From positions 1 through 37,848 of IMG/VR virus record IMGVR_UViG_3300042210_000067: a stretch of DNA of 37,848 nt; one strand, given 5' to 3'. The notes under the pieces are model-generated. The model was not told where the DNA came from. It saw nothing but the letters and a program-made list of their open reading frames with translations, and made no database searches. Numbering within the stretch: position 1 is the stretch's first letter; each line of letters starts with the position of its first letter. The DNA comes from a virus. Its lineage: Duplodnaviria > Caudoviricetes. A program made the translations under genes and the position numbers. This document shows positions 6,291-37,553 of the stretch, one piece after another.

Positions 6291-6491
6291 ATGAGTGTTG
6301 CATCAAATCAAAATCATCAGCTAAACCACACCACTCAACTTGTCAGTAAGGTCACTTGTATTTGTGGTCACTGCATTTGTGATAGCGAAGGTATCATCCG
6401 TTCTCGATGCGTGAAGCTTCATGAAGGTACAGCATTGTGCCGTTGTAAGCGTTGGGTAAAAGTGCCAGTTGTAATCAATACTGAGGATTAA
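6291..6491 (+). CDS. Small Cys-rich zinc-ribbon protein (Mu Com-like)
   Basis: CICGHCIC...CRCKRWVKV; AGGGG RBS; TATAAT at 6232-6237 upstream. Confidence 0.55.
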   Translation: MSVASNQNHQLNHTTQLVSKVTCICGHCICDSEGIIRSRCVKLHEGTALCRCKRWVKVPVVINTED

Positions 6492-6578
6492 TCTAGTTCT
6501 CAAATTTATATTGTTACCATAACAATATGAAACAACACTGTTATTATCTTTTGAGTCTTGTACAAAGGTGACCGAGCC

Positions 6579-7244
6579 ATGAAGAATCAAAAAGGAAATG
6601 CAGTTGTATTTATTGTTGTATTGATATTGATAGTTGCTCCATTTGTTTGGGTTTACAACCGTGCTGGTTGGTGGGGGGTAATACCAGCCGTCATCTGCAC
6701 AATCCTATTTTTGGGGTGGTTAATTAATAAAATCTCTTCACCAAGTAAGAAAGAACGCGAAGAAATAGAAAATCATATTAGGAGAATATTTGAAGGCACT
6801 TATTCTTTTAAGGATAAAAAGAGCATTCAAAAATCATTACCATCTGATTACAAAGCTCCTTTTGGTTCAGCTGCCCAAGTGTACGATTGCATACGATTAT
6901 CATTAACGAGCAAGAAAAGGGATATTGCTGAGCAACGGTTTCAAGATATAGATTTTTTCTTTGGTAACTTTCTTGAATACAAGCATTTGTTTACTAGTGA
7001 GCTTATCGAGTTCATCCAGTTTCAAGTAGATGATGCTAAACACATGTTTGCTAATACGCTATTTATAAATTTAGCAACGCAACATTATGAAAAAGCCCAA
7101 ACATTGAAAACGGTTAAATCCAAAACAAAATATGCACAGATGGCTTTGGATGTTTTAGATGAAGGGATTGCTCATCCAGAAACTGATGAGCAAATGCTAC
7201 GAGGTCATAAAGTACAGATTGAAGAGTACATTCAGTCGTTATAG
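6579..7244 (+). CDS. Moron: membrane-anchored hypothetical protein (two N-terminal TM helices)
   Basis: Two hydrophobic stretches followed by a soluble helical region; AT-rich; AAGGTG RBS before ATG 6579. Confidence 0.7.
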   Translation: MKNQKGNAVVFIVVLILIVAPFVWVYNRAGWWGVIPAVICTILFLGWLINKISSPSKKEREEIENHIRRIFEGTYSFKDKKSIQKSLPSDYKAPFGSAAQVYDCIRLSLTSKKRDIAEQRFQDIDFFFGNFLEYKHLFTSELIEFIQFQVDDAKHMFANTLFINLATQHYEKAQTLKTVKSKTKYAQMALDVLDEGIAHPETDEQMLRGHKVQIEEYIQSL

Positions 7245-7250
7245 TGAAAT

Positions 7251-7622
7251 TTACTTTATGGCTTTTTCAGTTCTAGCTAAGTACTTATCCATTTTTTCAC
7301 AATAGCTGATAGCTTGTTCTGAGCAATATACACATTGGAATGCTAAATCTGCGGCTTGGTAGGCAGGCATTCTGAAGATCACGTCATTTGATTTTTTGAT
7401 GGAGTCTTGCAACTGCTTAGCTTCTTCTCTGAAAGGCGCGGACAACTCAATACACTGTTTTAACTGTTCAGTATCTGCATATTGATATGTTTCAGATTGG
7501 CTGATTCCTTGTTTTTGAAGTGCTTTAAGTTGTATAAATATCAGCATGTTATCTTCATTTGCAAAAGAAATTGATGAGTGAAGCAATCCGAAAGTGAGAA
7601 GTGTATAAACTAGAAATTTCAT
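7251..7622 (-). CDS. Moron: secreted/periplasmic protein with Sec signal peptide and four Cys
   Basis: MKFLVYTLLTFGLLHSSISFA-NED signal; AAGGA RBS before ATG 7622; opposite strand to the virion genes. Confidence 0.7.
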   Translation of the reverse strand: MKFLVYTLLTFGLLHSSISFANEDNMLIFIQLKALQKQGISQSETYQYADTEQLKQCIELSAPFREEAKQLQDSIKKSNDVIFRMPAYQAADLAFQCVYCSEQAISYCEKMDKYLARTEKAIK

Positions 7623-7790
7623 ATTGGTCCTTGAGTTTGAAGCGAATAATTTCCACTGAGTATAAATGCTCAATAATGCGCATAATGTTAGTAATTGCTA
7701 AATGCGAAGTTCGTGAAGTATATGAATCTGCGTGCGGTATCACGAAAATAAAAAATAGAGAATGAATTGGTACTAAAGTACTAGTAACGT

Positions 7791-7810
7791 AACTGGATAT
7801 TTAAACAGTA
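7791..7810. promoter_or_regulatory. Putative LexA (SOS) box
   Basis: AACTGGATATTTAAACAGTA matches CTG(T/G)-N8-ACAG with an AT-rich spacer; 13 bp before the 7824 ATG. Confidence 0.7.
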
Positions 7811-7823
7811 CTTAGGGTGTTAC

Positions 7824-8321
7824 ATGAGTAGACAATATGAAGAAGAATTCATTCCAGCTATGTTTGTGTTGGTTGTTTTAGTTTTTGCCTCTTTCTCCTT
7901 TTTATTAGCAAAATCCTTTGAGGCTCCTTGGGATATTACTTTTTACTTTATGCTTAAATCTTTGTTTATAACGGCAATTTACTGTTTTTATGCATGGGTT
8001 AGGTATCATTTGCTACGGAATGAGTTCCAAACTAATTATGGCTACTACGGTTATACAAAGAGCTGGTATCACTACATACGAATTTGGCCGATAGCTATTT
8101 TATTAATTTTTATCGTTAGCTTTGAAATGCTAGACCACTCTGGAACAGTGACATACTCTGGTTTTTTCGCTAAAGCAAAAACCCCACTCCGTTACTATGA
8201 TGCTGATAAGGCTTGGTATACGTTTTGGTATAGTAAGCTGCTTATTTCCTGTTTAATTTTGATTGGTGGAAACTTAGTTCATCATACTTTAGCTAAATGG
8301 TTTAGAAGCGTATTTGACTAA
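7824..8321 (+). CDS. Moron: about 4-TM integral membrane protein
   Basis: Four hydrophobic/aromatic segments; AT-rich. Confidence 0.7.
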   Translation: MSRQYEEEFIPAMFVLVVLVFASFSFLLAKSFEAPWDITFYFMLKSLFITAIYCFYAWVRYHLLRNEFQTNYGYYGYTKSWYHYIRIWPIAILLIFIVSFEMLDHSGTVTYSGFFAKAKTPLRYYDADKAWYTFWYSKLLISCLILIGGNLVHHTLAKWFRSVFD

Positions 8322-23262: not shown

Positions 23263-23469
23263 ATGACCAAGTACATCACAAAAGAAGGTGACCAAATCGA
23301 TGACATCGCATACCGCTATTACGACGGTATGCCAGGAGCATTTGAAGCCGTACTAAAAGCCAATCGAGGGCTTTCGGCATTGCCTCATCCATTAGCAGCT
23401 GGCGTAGAAATAGAACTGCCTGCTCTCGAGCAACCGGCACAAGAAGAAGAGATCAGCTTATGGGATTGA
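23263..23469 (+). CDS. Tail protein X (LysM-like)
   Basis: TKEGD..D.IAYRYY, VLKANRGL, GVEIELP, terminal LWD. Confidence 0.92.
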   Translation: MTKYITKEGDQIDDIAYRYYDGMPGAFEAVLKANRGLSALPHPLAAGVEIELPALEQPAQEEEISLWD

Positions 23470-24467
23470 ACAACTACAAAATAGTCGCTAACGGTAAAGA
23501 CATAACCCCAACCATTCGCGATTTCTTTGTTCGTCTGGTCATCAATGACGCAGCGGGTATCGATAGCGATAGCTTTGAACTGGTACTAGCAGATGACGGC
23601 AAAATAGCGTTCCCACGCAATGAAGCCACCATGCAAATCTACACAGGGAAAGATGATAAACACTTGGTGTTCAGGGGCAGCTACACCGTTAACTCAGTAA
23701 AACTGCGCAGCCCTGAAAAACAAATTGTGCTCTCTGGCGATGCCGCGAACCTAGGCGGCAGTTTTAAAACTCAGCGTGATTACACCTGGCAAACCACCAC
23801 ACTGAAAACTCTGGTTGAAACCGTGGCACAACGTAACGGCTTAACGCCTTCGGTGTCTGCAGAATATGCCAATACCACAATTGAACACTACATTCAGGCA
23901 GGCCAAAGCGATGCCGATTTAGTGACAGAACTGGCAACCGAGCATGGCGCCACTATGAAAGTGGCCAATAAAAAACTCGTCTTTTTTCCTCGTGGAGATA
24001 ACCAAAGCGTAAGCGGTAAAACCTTACCTGCGGTAGCAGTGCATTTAACCGATGAGACAGAAGCAGAAATCACTCTGGAAGGAACCGGAAAGTTTCAGGC
24101 GGTAGAAGCGTACTGGCAAGCTGTAGCCGAAGGGCAAAAACAAGTTGTGCGGGTGGGGGAAAGTACAGGAAAAGTGAAGAAGCTCAGCAAAGTGTACCCA
24201 ACACAGGCGGCAGCGAAAGCCGCTGCTCAGTCTGCTTTGTATCGAGAGCAGTGTGGTGATTACAAACTCACCTTAGATGAAATGCCATTTATCGCTGGCA
24301 TACAGGCCGAGCGCAACATAGTGCTATCCGGCCATACTCGAAAAGAGTTCAACACTTACTGGATGTGCCAAAGCGTAAGAGAAGTATTATATGAGAACGG
24401 ACATGTGCTAAGCGGGGAGTTTGTTATCCCCAAACAGGATATTGGGGATATACCGAGGTTGGTGTAG
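23460..24467 (+). CDS. Baseplate hub (P2 gpD 'late control D'-like)
   Basis: DAAGIDSDSFELVLAD, QAGQSDADLVTELA motifs; follows gpX. Confidence 0.88.
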   Translation: MGLNNYKIVANGKDITPTIRDFFVRLVINDAAGIDSDSFELVLADDGKIAFPRNEATMQIYTGKDDKHLVFRGSYTVNSVKLRSPEKQIVLSGDAANLGGSFKTQRDYTWQTTTLKTLVETVAQRNGLTPSVSAEYANTTIEHYIQAGQSDADLVTELATEHGATMKVANKKLVFFPRGDNQSVSGKTLPAVAVHLTDETEAEITLEGTGKFQAVEAYWQAVAEGQKQVVRVGESTGKVKKLSKVYPTQAAAKAAAQSALYREQCGDYKLTLDEMPFIAGIQAERNIVLSGHTRKEFNTYWMCQSVREVLYENGHVLSGEFVIPKQDIGDIPRLV

Positions 24468-24479
24468 TGATTTGTAATT

Positions 24480-25385
24480 TTAAAGATAGTTACCAATAAA
24501 CTGTAGAATGAACCCTATGACGATCATTGCCATTGCGATGCGGGTTATTAGTATTTTACGCTTATACGATTTGATTTCTTCTGGCGTTGGATCTTCCACA
24601 GTTAGCGTGGCATTGCCTTCTAAGTAATCTTTTTTGTCTGCGAAATTTATTTCAGCAACGAAAAACCAAAGTAACACAACACCAATGATGTCTAAGGTCA
24701 ACCCTATGACAGATAGATTTGACTTTGTAATAAGGGCAACGAAGAAATTAAATATGTGCGCTATGACTCCCATAAACTCTTGCATAAACACCCCATGTAA
24801 TGTGGATAAATATATAGAAATCAGAATCTTAAAAGTCATGAAAACTAACAGCCAGAATGAAGCACTGATTAAAGCTGCATGTGACATGTTTAAGTTAGTT
24901 ATTTTTTCGTTATTTAAGTCATAGTTTGCTCTTAATGCTACAAGTAAATTTTCAGTTATATATTGACTACTGCTGCTCCCCACATTACCTATTAGGTCGT
25001 TCCAACCTAATAGGTAATGTTTGGTTACTTTGAGTGTTTTCAGAGCCCAAACTCCTGATCTTACGAGTTGTATTAAAGCCAATAAAAATGGCATGAATAA
25101 AATAATATCTACAAAGCTAATGCTATTACTGATTTTTGGCATTAAGGATGAAAAAAAAGCAATTAATGCTGTCACTGCAGCAATATATATCCCTGCTTTA
25201 TTATCGGCACCATCACGTCTAGATTGCTCTTGATCGTATAGCCGCCTAGCCTCTTCTAATACGGTAGCGTCATTTATATCTTTAAGAGATTCACGGATTC
25301 TTATTATATCGGTACTTCGAGAAGCATTTAGGCTCTCTAGGTCACTTTTGTTTTCAAATCTTGGCCAAAACCAGTCGTAGTTCAT
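24480..25385 (-). CDS. Multi-pass membrane protein: N-terminal 3-TM Pycsar-effector-like domain plus C-terminal 2-3 TM domain
   Basis: ADNKA followed by TM1; TM2; NYDLNNEK followed by TM3; then GLTLDIIGVVLL...GFILQ; ATGA overlap with the ATP-grasp stop. The ORF is solid, the family call is an inference. Confidence 0.6.
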   Translation of the reverse strand: MNYDWFWPRFENKSDLESLNASRSTDIIRIRESLKDINDATVLEEARRLYDQEQSRRDGADNKAGIYIAAVTALIAFFSSLMPKISNSISFVDIILFMPFLLALIQLVRSGVWALKTLKVTKHYLLGWNDLIGNVGSSSSQYITENLLVALRANYDLNNEKITNLNMSHAALISASFWLLVFMTFKILISIYLSTLHGVFMQEFMGVIAHIFNFFVALITKSNLSVIGLTLDIIGVVLLWFFVAEINFADKKDYLEGNATLTVEDPTPEEIKSYKRKILITRIAMAMIVIGFILQFIGNYL

Positions 25386-26329
25386 AGCTGTGACTCACCT
25401 ATTTTTAGTAATTCACTTACGATGCTGTTAGCTATAGGAGCTTGCGTTTGGTTTTCTATCCAAGCCCATTGACCATTTGGATTTATTTCAAGGAACCAGT
25501 AGTTATCAGATGTGTCACAAATAAAATCTATTGCTCCAAATCTTAGATTCAACAACTTAGTGAGCTCTATACAACGCTTTTCAATTTCGATTGGCAGTTC
25601 AATAATTTTATGTACTAGTTCGCAGTGACCACCTCTCCTCCAATCAACAACTGTTTCTGCATAATCTTGGGAAAATATCGCCGTAGCAAAAACACTTTCT
25701 CCGACAACCGTTACTCTAACATCATACTTTTTACTTATTTCTTGTTGAAATATCACAGGTGCAGCGCTTAGTGGTTCGGCATCACTTTCTGTCAATTGAT
25801 TAATTCGGTTTGTGAAAATTACTTTTTCTTCTTCGTCTTCAAGTAAGGCTTGTCTCAAAGGTTTTGCTATTAAGCTAATGTTTTGTTCTAAGCTTTTTGC
25901 AGTATCGATATCGTTTGTAATTGTATTTTTGGGAATAGCAAATCCAAGCTGCTTTGCTAATAGCAACTGTTTAGGCTTATCTTCGGCGAGTGTTATATCT
26001 ACAGGAGAACTGAACCATTTATTTTCTAATCGTGCATATATGCTTTTTAAAAAAGCTTGCCATTCTGTACTAACATAAGTGCTTATACCTACATTGTTCG
26101 TTGAAAGCTTAGCTGCTGGTATGCCTGGTCTTCTAAAATAGGCTGCGGAAACCTGTTGTCCGTTTATAGTGCCTATTGACCAGTCATCAATGTGTTCATT
26201 ACCTATTCGGCATTTATATTGATAGATAGTTTCTGTATTTAAACGGAAAAAAGGAATTTTACGTAAACGAAGATCTCTTACTATGTAATCCATAGTGAGA
26301 TCTCTTTGATTTGTAATAAGCAAAATCAT
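25382..26329 (-). CDS. ATP-grasp RiPP macrocyclase (graspetide synthetase, MvdC/MvdD-like)
   Basis: MILLIT..D, FRLNTE, YFRRP, AEDKPKQL, IAKP, PVIFQQEISKKYDVRVTVVG, DWR, FGAIDFI, FLEINPNGQW. Confidence 0.93.
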   Translation of the reverse strand: MILLITNQRDLTMDYIVRDLRLRKIPFFRLNTETIYQYKCRIGNEHIDDWSIGTINGQQVSAAYFRRPGIPAAKLSTNNVGISTYVSTEWQAFLKSIYARLENKWFSSPVDITLAEDKPKQLLLAKQLGFAIPKNTITNDIDTAKSLEQNISLIAKPLRQALLEDEEEKVIFTNRINQLTESDAEPLSAAPVIFQQEISKKYDVRVTVVGESVFATAIFSQDYAETVVDWRRGGHCELVHKIIELPIEIEKRCIELTKLLNLRFGAIDFICDTSDNYWFLEINPNGQWAWIENQTQAPIANSIVSELLKIGESQL

Positions 26330-26349
26330 GTATGTGTCAACTGCCTATA

Positions 26350-26694
26350 TTATAACTCGAATCCATTATCATCAGATTCCATTTGTACATCGGTCTTTGT
26401 CACAAGTTCTGGTAGGCAAGACTTAGTAATGAGACCATCATCATCACTTTCAGGTGATACGAATGTTTTTGTTACCAGCTCTAGAGCGAAATTAGCTTCA
26501 TCGTCAGACTCGGTTTCTGCTTTGGTTTTAGTTACTAGTTCAGCGGTATTTGACATCTCAATTACTGGCTTGCTTGTTTTTTCATCAACCCACATGTCGA
26601 GTTCTTCACAGTAGTGGCCTCCAATAGATGGTCCTGAAGTTCTGGGAACCGCAAAGTTCACCAGAAATGGGGTGTTATCTCTGATTTCTAACAT
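26350..26694 (-). CDS. Multicore graspetide precursor peptide (leader plus three cores)
   Basis: Leader with PFLVNFA; cores ELVTKTKAETESDD, ELVTKTFVSPESDD, ELVTKTDVQMESDD; AAGGA RBS 7 nt before ATG 26694 (alternative ATG 26697); 20 bp upstream of the ATP-grasp gene. Confidence 0.9.
   Translation of the reverse strand: MLEIRDNTPFLVNFAVPRTSGPSIGGHYCEELDMWVDEKTSKPVIEMSNTAELVTKTKAETESDDEANFALELVTKTFVSPESDDDGLITKSCLPELVTKTDVQMESDDNGFEL
26368..26541 (-). repeat. Three peptide-level repeats ELVTKTxxxxESDD (26500-26541, 26440-26481, 26368-26409)
   Basis: Read directly from the translation; codons differ between copies. Confidence 0.95.
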
Positions 26695-26722
26695 CATGCA
26701 TTCCTTAAATATCCAAATCACT

Positions 26723-26751
26723 AGAATGGTTTAACTTTTAATTTCATGCAA
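26723..26751 (-). promoter_or_regulatory. Candidate sigma70 promoter of the graspetide operon
   Basis: TTGCAT-17 bp-CATTCT on the minus strand just upstream of the precursor RBS. Confidence 0.35.
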
Positions 26752-26836
26752 CAAAGTTATAAGCATCTAGTTGTCATATTGATTTTTATGTGATCTACAA
26801 GCATTACCGTTTGCGATAGGCAACTAAAATAATGTC

Positions 26837-26881
26837 TTGATTTCATATTCCTAGTTAAAGATACTGTATGTACATACAGTT
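26837..26881 (+). promoter_or_regulatory. LexA-repressed sigma70 promoter
   Basis: TTGATT (26837-42)-17 bp-GATACT (26860-65), overlapped by the perfect palindrome CTGTATGTACATACAG (26864-79). Confidence 0.85.
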
Positions 26882-26893
26882 GTTTTAGGGGTA

Positions 26894-27073
26894 ATGATGG
26901 AACAGGTTCGAGATACAGAAAAAGAAACGCCAGAGCAGATGGTACTTGCTCTGGCGTTGGAAAAGTTAGCTTGTATTGCTCGTTCTAAAGAGTTTCAGTC
27001 CTTGAGTACATCAAAAGAAGTTTCTATGGCTGAAGATATTTCTTCTTCAGATAAACCAAGCTTCTCCGCTTGA
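26894..27073 (+). CDS. Putative SOS-inducible antirepressor (Tum-like), 59 aa, not in ORF track
   Basis: MMEQVRDTEKETPEQMVLALALEKLACIARSKEFQSLSTSKEVSMAEDISSSDKPSFSA*; AGGGG RBS; LexA box upstream; 3' end overlaps the repressor gene antisense. Confidence 0.6.
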   Translation: MMEQVRDTEKETPEQMVLALALEKLACIARSKEFQSLSTSKEVSMAEDISSSDKPSFSA

Positions 27074-27819
27074 CGGTAAACAGCAGTAATAACACGAGCC
27101 TTTTGGTCTGCGCTTAAATTTTGCTTACTTTCTTCTTCACATTGCTCTACTAGTTTTACGACTGAGCGCATCAAGTCTGTTGCTATTGGTACCGCATAGC
27201 TAGTTCCTTCCCCCATGTATACTCGTGGGTTGTACTGGATTTGCTCAGGAACGACAACTCTGCTGGAAAAGTTGATTAAATGTGAGTCTTCATGAACAAG
27301 AAGCGAATAGGTTCCTAGATGACCTTCTGCAATTTGGTCCAAAACGTCACCAGCTAGCATTTCTGCCAAATATATTTCTCTTTCACTAAAGCTAGCCTTA
27401 AGAACGCTCGCTAGTTCCTCGCTTCCGGGACCAACGAGTACTTGGCATATAGTGTAATCATACCATTTGTCCTTAGATTCATACTGTCCTGGTAGTGATA
27501 GAACCAGTACTGTACGAGCTCCTAGGTTACATATGTAAACCTTCCAATCTTCATCCATAAGCAGCTGATCAACAGTGTCGGCCAGCCTTTCTGCTGACTG
27601 AATGTAATCAACACTATATGGGCTGCCACTTCCAGACAGTAACCAGTTGAGATTTACATTTTCAACACGACGAATGATGTTGAGTATTTCTGGACCAGGA
27701 ATTCTTCCACCAAAAATTGAAGAAATAGACCCGCCAGTGAAACCCAGCGATTTTCCCCAAGGTGTTTGTTTTCTGTCACCTAGAACTAAATTGAGGCGCT
27801 CAACAAAAGAATTGGTCAT
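26995..27819 (-). CDS. Prophage CI-like repressor (N-terminal HTH)
   Basis: FVERL...HTH...VNLNWLLSGSGSPY; divergent from the early operon; no recognisable S24 peptidase motif. Confidence 0.8.
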   Translation of the reverse strand: MTNSFVERLNLVLGDRKQTPWGKSLGFTGGSISSIFGGRIPGPEILNIIRRVENVNLNWLLSGSGSPYSVDYIQSAERLADTVDQLLMDEDWKVYICNLGARTVLVLSLPGQYESKDKWYDYTICQVLVGPGSEELASVLKASFSEREIYLAEMLAGDVLDQIAEGHLGTYSLLVHEDSHLINFSSRVVVPEQIQYNPRVYMGEGTSYAVPIATDLMRSVVKLVEQCEEESKQNLSADQKARVITAVYRQAEKLGLSEEEISSAIETSFDVLKD

Positions 27820-28914: not shown

Positions 28915-29616
28915 ATGAATACTTTATCAACTCAAAATCTAAGTTCTTCAATCAATCTGTTTCTGCACTATTTCACTGAGCAGGAAGAGAAAAAACTATT
29001 CAAAACGGTTAAGGAAACACAGGGCATTTATGCGAAGAGGGATTACTACTGGATGCTATTGATGCGTGAAACTGCGATTCGTTTAGGGGTGTTAGCTGGC
29101 CCAGATGCAGGTAAGGCACAACGTCACGATTTGCCTATGATTGGGCTAACGGTTGGTGACGCTGAACGTAGTTTGCAAGAAGGCTATTTGGTTTACGACA
29201 GCATGAACGCTAAGAACCTTAAAAAACACCCGATCGCTTTAAACAAGTCAGCAACCAGCGCGCTAAGACACTTACTTAAAATTCATAAAGAAATGAGCGA
29301 AGGCATCGATTGGGAAACGCCACGACTAGACCGTCCTCTTTTTCTTAGCCGAAACAATCAGGCGATGAGTCGCCGTTCTTTCCAACACCGTTTTACACAG
29401 TGGTGCCGTGTTGCAGAAGTTCCAGCAGGTACACCGCACTGGTTACGCCATTCATGGGCAAAACGCTTTTTAGAACGCACAACGTCACCAGATGCGTTGC
29501 GTAGAGTTCAAGCGGTGCTTGGACACACGAACCTATCTACAACCTCAATCTATACGGCACCTGACCGTGAGTCTCTGGATTCAGCTATGAGAGAGGCAAG
29601 CACATGTTTTCGATAG
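28915..29616 (+). CDS. Tyrosine recombinase, catalytic domain only
   Basis: TAIRLG, HWLRHS, VQAVLGHTNLSTTSIY; only 233 aa. Confidence 0.88.
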   Translation: MNTLSTQNLSSSINLFLHYFTEQEEKKLFKTVKETQGIYAKRDYYWMLLMRETAIRLGVLAGPDAGKAQRHDLPMIGLTVGDAERSLQEGYLVYDSMNAKNLKKHPIALNKSATSALRHLLKIHKEMSEGIDWETPRLDRPLFLSRNNQAMSRRSFQHRFTQWCRVAEVPAGTPHWLRHSWAKRFLERTTSPDALRRVQAVLGHTNLSTTSIYTAPDRESLDSAMREASTCFR

Positions 29617-36350: not shown

Positions 36351-36371
36351 TTATTCATTTATGAGGTGACC

Positions 36372-37553
36372 GTGCCACGTCCTAGAAGTAAAAAATATAG
36401 AGACCTTCCAGAAGGTCTCTATTACTACAACAACAAAGGTTATGTATTTCGACGCATCGATGCGACTTGGAAATCGCTTGGTCATGACAAGTCGAAAGCT
36501 GTGTCTATGGCCAAGCGTTATAACGCCACTTTCAGAGTAGCCAAGAACATTACCCACATTGAAGAAACACCTTCACCGGCTTATATGCGAAAGCAAACTT
36601 TATTCTCTGAATTCCTTGATAGGATTAGTTCAAGATATGAGAGCGAGGAAAGCCCAACTCAGGGAACGTTAAATGATTTCAATAACAAATTGATAAAACT
36701 AAGGTTGATTCTAGGTGGATATGTCGGTGCGGCTATTGGTTTGGATGAAGTAAACCTTGTCCTTAACGAAGTCGCCACGAATAAATCAAATAATGTGTAT
36801 AACCGTTGGCTTTCATTCCTAGAGAAAGTTTTTTCATATGCAGTTGATGAATCAGTCATGATCGATAATCCTGCAAAGCGTAAGAAACGAAAGCCAAAGG
36901 ATAATAAGCAACGTAAAAGGCTCAATCTGGAAGAGTATCATCGGATAAGAGCTATTGCGCCTAGCTGGTTGAAGATAGCTATGGATTTGTCTTTAGAGAC
37001 AACTCACGCAGTTAATGAAATTTGCGCTTTGAAATACTCCGATATTGAGTACTTACCTGAACCAGTTATTGATGGTGATTGGAAGGTCTATGGGTACATT
37101 AAGATCCATCGCCAAAAAGTTCAGAAGCATGAATCGAGTCGTGTCATCATTCCAGTGACAACGTCTCTTTTAAATATTATCGAAGATAGTAAGAAAGATG
37201 GTATCGATTCGCCGTACATTGTTCACAGGCAACCACAACGGCTTTCTAATGATATTAGCCAGAACTGCGACCATATAACTCAAGTCAACCGTAAGTATTT
37301 AAGCCGCCAGTTTTCTAATTACAGGGATATGGCCAAAGTAAAAAAAGACGTACCAAGTACACAGCGCCCAACATTTCACGAAATTCGGAGTTTGAGCATT
37401 CATCTTTACGATGAGTCAGGTTATGACCCACAAATTCGGGCGGCGCACTCTGATGCCAGAAGCACAGAAATCTATAAGGCAGGCCATATTCAATGGGTTA
37501 AAGTGCCACCTGCAGAGTTGGGGATTAGAACACTAAGGGAACATCATGGATAA
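36372..37553 (+). CDS. int: Phage integrase (lambda-type tyrosine recombinase)
   Basis: N-terminal arm-binding PRPR...LPEGLY; PTFHEIRSL; AHSDARSTEIY; GTG start after GAGG. Confidence 0.92.
   Translation: MPRPRSKKYRDLPEGLYYYNNKGYVFRRIDATWKSLGHDKSKAVSMAKRYNATFRVAKNITHIEETPSPAYMRKQTLFSEFLDRISSRYESEESPTQGTLNDFNNKLIKLRLILGGYVGAAIGLDEVNLVLNEVATNKSNNVYNRWLSFLEKVFSYAVDESVMIDNPAKRKKRKPKDNKQRKRLNLEEYHRIRAIAPSWLKIAMDLSLETTHAVNEICALKYSDIEYLPEPVIDGDWKVYGYIKIHRQKVQKHESSRVIIPVTTSLLNIIEDSKKDGIDSPYIVHRQPQRLSNDISQNCDHITQVNRKYLSRQFSNYRDMAKVKKDVPSTQRPTFHEIRSLSIHLYDESGYDPQIRAAHSDARSTEIYKAGHIQWVKVPPAELGIRTLREHHG

Follow-up and report, generated by a model that had tools for sequence, protein, structure and literature searches.

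The window analysed here covers positions 1-37,848 of the IMG/VR provirus record IMGVR_UViG_3300042210_000067, in which tail sheath, tape measure, primase and integrase genes are present. Between a gpD-like tail gene and a probable repressor gene it carries a cassette of three minus-strand genes encoding a graspetide precursor, an ATP-grasp ligase and a membrane protein. An earlier note, written from the sequence alone, had taken this cassette for a graspetide operon coupled to a membrane effector and for a candidate new anti-phage system. Its features are as follows.

26350-26694, minus strand: graspetide precursor gene, 114 amino acids, counted from the second of two adjacent ATGs
26500-26532, minus strand: core 1 (T55-D65), with T55, K56, T57 and E62 invariant in 21 precursors
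26440-26472, minus strand: core 2 (T75-D85)
26368-26400, minus strand: core 3 (T99-D109)
25382-26329, minus strand: ATP-grasp graspetide ligase gene, 315 amino acids
24480-25385, minus strand: membrane protein gene, 301 amino acids
24792-25385, minus strand: membrane protein core, residues 1-198, with an N-terminal W7-P8 arm, a charged helix and three predicted transmembrane helices
24480-24743, minus strand: fused tail of two transmembrane helices, residues about 215-301, homologous to the stand-alone 84-residue proteins P0272 and P0273 (58-64% identity)

The genes are tightly coupled, a 20-bp gap separating precursor and ligase and an ATGA overlap joining ligase and membrane gene, and all three run antisense to the virion operon. 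Their shared orientation and close spacing had been read correctly in the earlier note, as had their AT-richness relative to the tail genes: the GC content of the cassette is 0.357, compared with 0.478-0.498 in gpD, gpU and the tape measure gene. A promoter scan yielded fewer sites than shuffled sequences did, and none upstream of the precursor.

The precursor contains three TKT-x4-ESDD cores, whereas two or more such cores arose in 0 of 100,000 shuffles. Its leader displays the motifs PFL..FA..R, G.Y...W and P, and the segment PFLVNF fits the Phhx(1,2)h leader pattern. The peptide has a net charge of -16, and the charge is negative in 21/21 precursors. It shows neither a signal-like hydrophobic stretch nor a GG/GA ahead of core 1, and only 2 of the 21 precursors have GG/GA at this place. 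The ligase combines a D229-W230-R231 loop with the motif EINPNG, both invariant in 50 homologues, and matches the macrocyclases AMdnB and CdnC in the PDB (E 1e-32 to 2e-31). Ring formation by the graspetide ligase family is established knowledge, and this enzyme probably acts on the precursor's three acidic repeats, stapling them into rings. A D(F/W)R loop is described for PsnB in part of a preprint. Against NCBIfam, the ligase scored E 1.6e-63 with TIGR04187, 2.5e-50 with TIGR04185 and 3.7e-47 with TIGR04184, all under the curated cut-offs, and reached 171 of 425 and 161 of 475 bits with the MvdC and MvdD equivalog models. Membership of MvdC/MvdD proper was therefore rejected.

Homologous precursors form cluster 13 of Makarova 2022 (PMC8939145), which the relevant passages equate with Lee group 5 and the thuringinin branch, and the Leptospira precursor of loci L083 and L090 is letter-for-letter identical to the gr_05 entry of that study. 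Leptospira phages (L083, L085 and L090) carry the same trio next to a helix-turn-helix (HTH) gene. The same passages describe a membrane family, cluster 18, with 198 occurrences, specific to thuringinin-branch loci and present where known transporters are missing, and suggest a role in peptide transport; the words 'phage' and 'defense' are absent from the main text. Judging from branch and context, the membrane gene may belong to cluster 18. As stated in a passage of a review (PMC7327761), the group-5 peptide OEP-5-1 from Vibrio sp. JCM 18905 has been produced heterologously. By its sequence, the cassette is thus assigned to the graspetide clusters of group 5, thuringinin branch, which are already catalogued. 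The three-gene unit itself (cluster 13/group 5) was accordingly already on record, which limits the novelty that the earlier note had seen in it.

The membrane gene, as the earlier note had not remarked, encodes a three-helix core of about 200 residues with an extra two-helix tail, which is missing from the closest cassette homologues (221-233 amino acids). The structural model (predicted local distance difference test score 82.6) and hydropathy agree on three helices in the core. In PADLOC, PycTM was matched by 32 of 60 family members at E<=0.01 (best 4e-7), and none of the 60 matched PF18967 at this threshold. A profile comparison by hhalign with 13 PF18967 proteins gave a probability of 94.7% (E 6e-8, 143 columns), compared with 1.8% for the reversed profile and at most 3.7% for 30 local shuffles, which destroy helical periodicity too. 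In the ESM Atlas of predicted structures, the model reached TM-scores of 0.71-0.72 (by query) to clusters in which 27-33% of members are PycTM. Both invariant PycTM lysines align with K63 and K161. By these comparisons, we identify the core of the membrane protein as a distant PycTM homologue. Other searches with the model were less informative: Foldseek against the PDB gave nothing clear, VIA-align only generic helical bundles (best Z 10.5) and BFVD no match at E<=0.001, and a PDB sequence search with the protein returned only weak claudin matches. No transporter family was matched among the 60 members.

Residues conserved to at least 90% (W7, P8, L43, E53, R56, K63, N159 and K161) all map to the predicted cytoplasmic side, formed by loop 2 and an N-terminus rich in K/R, and the region C-terminal of helix 3 is free to vary across the family. 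Cassette members align to the family profile from positions 1-6, so that the W-P arm is covered, whereas in 11 distant homologues the match starts only at positions 32-51; of these homologues, 10 have no ligase within about 1.5 kb. Since the arm is a feature of cassette members and lies outside the match in the mostly ligase-less distant homologues, it is a candidate contact for the peptide or the ligase. Complex prediction with ligase, precursor and membrane core scored 0.00, which is evidence neither way. The C-terminal tails of homologues are varied (P0147, P0179, P0199, P0154 and P0137), with collagen repeats according to Pfam and, by eye, an OmpA-like-looking domain and a 170-residue domain that recurs in Alphaproteobacteria. 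A fused catalytic effector was considered and rejected, because the long C-terminal tails of 28 homologues hold no Pfam enzyme domain (collagen repeats in 2). Membership of Pycsar was likewise rejected, given the missing PF18967 match and the lack of an adjacent PycC: PycC has no match in the cassette or the scanned flanks, and the adjoining gene encodes the ATP-grasp ligase.

The membrane gene is retained beside ligase homologues, as had been anticipated. Counts for genome loci refer to the best 80 of 119 loci. In 76/80 of them, the gene immediately after the ligase is a homologue of the membrane gene, as found with a family profile seeded from 20 sequences, 18 of them taken from the same locus set. 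Of the remaining four, L047 is without the membrane gene, L081 has a broken copy, and L072 and L074 are cut off by contig edges; no membrane-gene match was obtained in the genome of L047 or in that of L074. The core motif lies upstream in 74 of the 78 loci assessed. Ligase and membrane protein diverge in step: across 77 loci their pairwise identities are correlated (Spearman coefficient 0.75), and in 50/77 they have the same nearest neighbour. At L047, L074 and L081, ligase and precursor are accompanied by no membrane gene or by a broken one, and all strong membrane-gene matches that could be assessed adjoin a ligase. At E<=1e-30 the membrane family has 240 representatives, rising to 2,898 at E<=0.001. 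Its occurrence is sporadic, with strong matches in 2/401 genomes of a phylum sample and 3/401 of a family sample, each count including the centre genome, and a DNA search gave matches in 2 of 5,426 E. coli genomes. In L001 (5729-7561), the same trio is inserted in an unrelated provirus, on the strand opposite to the virion and tail-fibre genes around it.

To characterise the surroundings, 192 neighbours of 30 loci were scanned with Pfam; these comprise 29 genome loci and one prophage, and omit 51 of the 80 genome loci, mostly from Alphaproteobacteria. By our reading of the Pfam matches, named defence systems occur in 12 of the 30 loci and looser defence-type domains in a further 11. The named systems are Gabija, Shedu, Wadjet, TIR plus caspase, AbiG, type III and type ISP restriction and GmrSD, and Gabija lies directly downstream of the cassette in 5/30 loci. 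No ABC transporter, C39 peptidase or HlyD is found among the 192 neighbours, genes acting in trans being possible; the dedicated exporters or peptidases that would have spoken against the earlier proposal thus did not appear beside the homologues. The controls were 11.5-kb regions taken from the same contigs at a distance of 65-90 kb, not matched for mobility; 16 of 20 were retained (L109-L112 dropped) and the cassette set was reduced to the 16 matching genomes. The Pfam thresholds differ between control (E<=1e-12) and test set (1e-5), and the statistics were therefore taken from PADLOC at one threshold. At E<=1e-20, and counting what we judged to be full-length defence genes, 9/16 cassette flanks (20/114 proteins) are positive compared with 2/16 controls (3/134; p=0.023), after removal of matches to RecBD, two ABC ATPases, RsmA and a sigma-54 activator once the output had been seen. 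Defence enrichment around the cassettes is thus modest and depends on the filter. At the chosen filter, the predicted excess of homologues in defence islands over controls was borne out, and the enrichment in prophages expected alongside it was not: the cassette is mainly an island gene, found in 2/50,697 phage records.

Two further contexts deserve mention. In L003 (4692-8517), the cassette adjoins cas8/5f-cas7f-cas6f, a gene order typical of the type I-F3 class of CRISPR-associated transposon (CAST), and the Cas8/5 fusion suggests such an element. In both E. coli copies (L152 11552-17073 and L153 6552-12073), it starts 18 bp after hxsA of the hxs operon, on the same strand and in relaxase-bearing islands, and operon and cassette are possibly transcribed as one unit there. 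HXS is described in part of PMC13128918 as a validated anti-phage system; the main text of that article makes no mention of ATP-grasp.

In the provirus, the cassette occupies a slot with the following bounds.

23460-24467, plus strand: gpD-like tail gene, left anchor of the slot (phrog_52 tail E 6.6e-81; PF05954 E 1.5e-6, below cut-off)
24468-26887: whole insert, 2.4 kb, 35.7% GC, reaching from the gpD stop to the regulator region
26995-27819, minus strand, divergent: probable phage repressor, right anchor of the slot, named from its position

Of the proposed location between gpD and the repressor, the left side is backed by the phrog_52 match; the label on the right derives from position only, because the regulator has no HTH match in Pfam or PHROGs. 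The insert bounds follow from one contig of run X1 (possibly the source sample itself), in which 24467 is immediately followed by 26888. A variant in run X8 retains the cassette, with 6 of 9 substitutions synonymous in ligase and precursor among those listed. When the slot was compared across eight related prophages retrieved via gpD (67-98% identity), the cassette was present in 0/8 and the slot proved variable. It holds a KAP nucleoside triphosphatase (NTPase) in L113 and L118, a defence candidate matching PADLOC PDC-S20 (E about 1e-83), and genes without an assigned function in L116, L117 and L119; it is empty in L115, and L120 has only a small HTH-like open reading frame. In L114, whose gpD is 97% identical, it holds a lipoprotein-like gene of the sialate O-acetylesterase family (7165-7923, PF03629). 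PADLOC matched 2 of the 6 slot reading frames scanned, that of L116 lying outside the scan. An equivalent of the regulator occurs at the same position in the relatives and is frameshifted in L117. The cassette is therefore a removable insert in a variable prophage slot.

Together, the PycTM homology, the modest controlled enrichment and the slot shared with defence candidates make an anti-phage function a good and cheap hypothesis. We favour a model, with a probability of roughly 0.45, in which a cytoplasmic stapled peptide restrains a PycTM-fold membrane effector that is released on infection. The stapled product would remain in the cytoplasm, where it would bind and hold back the PycTM-like protein before infection; the infecting phage would remove or alter the peptide, and the membrane protein, once freed, would abort the infection by damaging the inner membrane. 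PycTM itself disrupts the membrane according to part of PMC11224242. We infer the cytoplasmic retention, the binding of peptide to effector, the restraining direction, the trigger and any anti-phage effect. The direction is suggested, weakly, by an asymmetry of gene presence, because there are loci with ligase and precursor that lack an intact membrane gene, whereas the cassette-type membrane gene was never seen without a ligase. An anti-phage role of whatever kind is somewhat more likely than not. Tentatively, at somewhat under even odds, the cassette would represent an immune system that signals by a side-chain-stapled ribosomal peptide in place of a cyclic nucleotide, with a Pycsar-type effector gated via its added N-terminal arm and the graspetide reporting infection. 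In agreement with the earlier note, no graspetide-plus-membrane-effector defence system was found in the literature, searched largely without subscription journals, and the term 'grasp' is absent from the main texts of PMC13069673, its preprint, PMC9122126 and DefensePredictor, whose supplements could list the operon.

Several observations weigh against this model. The invariant proline and N-x-x-F-F loop of PycTM are not retained, and ten distant homologues of the membrane protein stand without a ligase. By our reading of the sequences, a cyclase-like neighbour exists at only 2 of the 13 above-cut-off PF18967 loci viewed; the PycTM fold therefore does not imply defence, and this scarcity suggests that the PF18967 family has roles beyond Pycsar. 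Seven of the 30 loci have no defence-type neighbour. The enrichment falls to 8/16 cassette flanks (p=0.054) without the CAST-like locus and to 10/16 versus 6/16 (p=0.29) when all PADLOC matches are counted, and mobile islands gather many kinds of cargo. Phage copies are few: beyond the scarcity in phage records, IMG/VR has 7 loci, with the trio in 4. The slot, too, accommodates the non-defence esterase of L114. Most of the sampled PF18967 genes (L121-L130) are alone or fused to other domains, with no evident cyclase.

The cassette might instead make an ordinary secreted graspetide, the membrane protein exporting or scaffolding a peptide with an extracellular role, whether in protease inhibition or in signalling. 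This fits the placing of cluster 18 in transporter-less loci (PMC8939145, passages cited above) and the lack of another exporter nearby, and part of a 2026 preprint on a Porphyromonas integrative and conjugative element (ICE) states that functionally characterised graspetides are protease inhibitors. The core, however, has three transmembrane helices and matches no transporter family, its homology points to PycTM, there is no evident leader peptidase or signal, and the surroundings are rich in defence genes; we regard secretion as unlikely. In another variant, the cassette would be anti-phage and the stapled acidic peptide would itself do the inhibiting, by blocking a phage protease or by mimicking nucleic acid, with the membrane protein only anchoring or activating the ligase; or the peptide would switch the effector on. 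The island evidence applies to it equally, the consistently negative precursors would suit it, and precedents are found in parts of reports on lanthiphages (preprint), HXS (PMC13128918) and partner-dependent graspetide synthetases (PMC13097080). Yet direct inhibition has no need of a PycTM-fold partner, and the group-5 peptide OEP-5-1 was obtained heterologously (PMC7327761), the genes used not being visible in the passage of that review; we consider this variant improbable.

About equally improbable, in our view, is a function unrelated to phages, the cassette being an addiction or stress module of peptide antitoxin and membrane toxin, or neutral island cargo. Integrases, relaxases and Tn7 and ICE genes flank many copies, one of the two strong matches in the phylum sample is the centre genome, and the mobility of the DNA is not balanced in the controls. 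Against it stand the tight placement of the cassette, immediately before Gabija in 5 of the 30 loci and immediately after hxs in the two E. coli genomes, and a slot common to KAP NTPases. Restraint of a PycTM-like effector by a stapled peptide continues to be the reading that we prefer.

The cassette shares with group 5 graspetides and cluster 13 the multi-core precursor family, the ligase branch and an uncharacterised membrane gene in transporter-less loci. Where Makarova 2022 proposes transport, we find a PycTM-related membrane protein and defence-associated loci, and compared with the units of clusters 13 and 18 this copy has the additional fused two-helix tail. With Pycsar (PycC plus PycTM, PF18967) it has in common the three-helix membrane fold, the aligned lysines and tight coupling to an enzyme gene; it differs in that a peptide ligase and its precursor take the place of the cyclase, and in the W-P arm added at the N-terminus. 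Panoptes and PanDA (PMC13712596 and PMC13640721, in part) resemble it in proposed logic only, a constitutive product holding a membrane effector off until phage removes the product; they employ cyclic nucleotides with 2TM-beta or CARF-TM effectors, and we claim no homology. Lanthiphages and HXS likewise place a post-translationally modified product in defence islands, with hxs as direct neighbour in two E. coli genomes, but their chemistry differs (lanthionine and radical SAM, respectively) and their abstracts describe no PycTM-like partner. The microviridin enzymes MvdC/MvdD (MdnB/C) have the same ligase fold and D(F/W)R loop; here, in contrast, there are one ligase instead of two, another core motif, no ABC transporter nearby and scores below both NCBIfam cut-offs.

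Graspetides have been studied as secreted protease inhibitors, and the family itself was known; what is new here is the relatedness of the membrane protein to PycTM and the defence association of the loci. If the anti-phage reading is true, it would give the thuringinin branch a function (281 ligase rows in Table S1 of Makarova 2022), add peptides to the ligands of a nucleotide-signalling effector fold and name a defence system for which PADLOC 2.0 has neither a ligase nor a precursor model. The cassette is small (2.4 kb), and natural E. coli copies exist.

Elsewhere in the window, a plus-strand open reading frame of 59 residues (26894-27073) lies antisense to the 3' end of the probable repressor and recurs in the relatives L113, L114, L115 and L117. 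A second, short tyrosine-recombinase gene (28915-29616, 233 amino acids) follows cII, the integrase itself lying at 36366-37553; it is also present in the relatives viewed. Finally, a second AT-rich stretch (6291-8321, GC 0.34-0.36) amid the head genes is possibly another moron slot. It contains three small genes of no known family (6558-7244, plus strand; 7251-7673, minus strand; 7824-8321, plus strand), two of them with transmembrane or signal-like starts.

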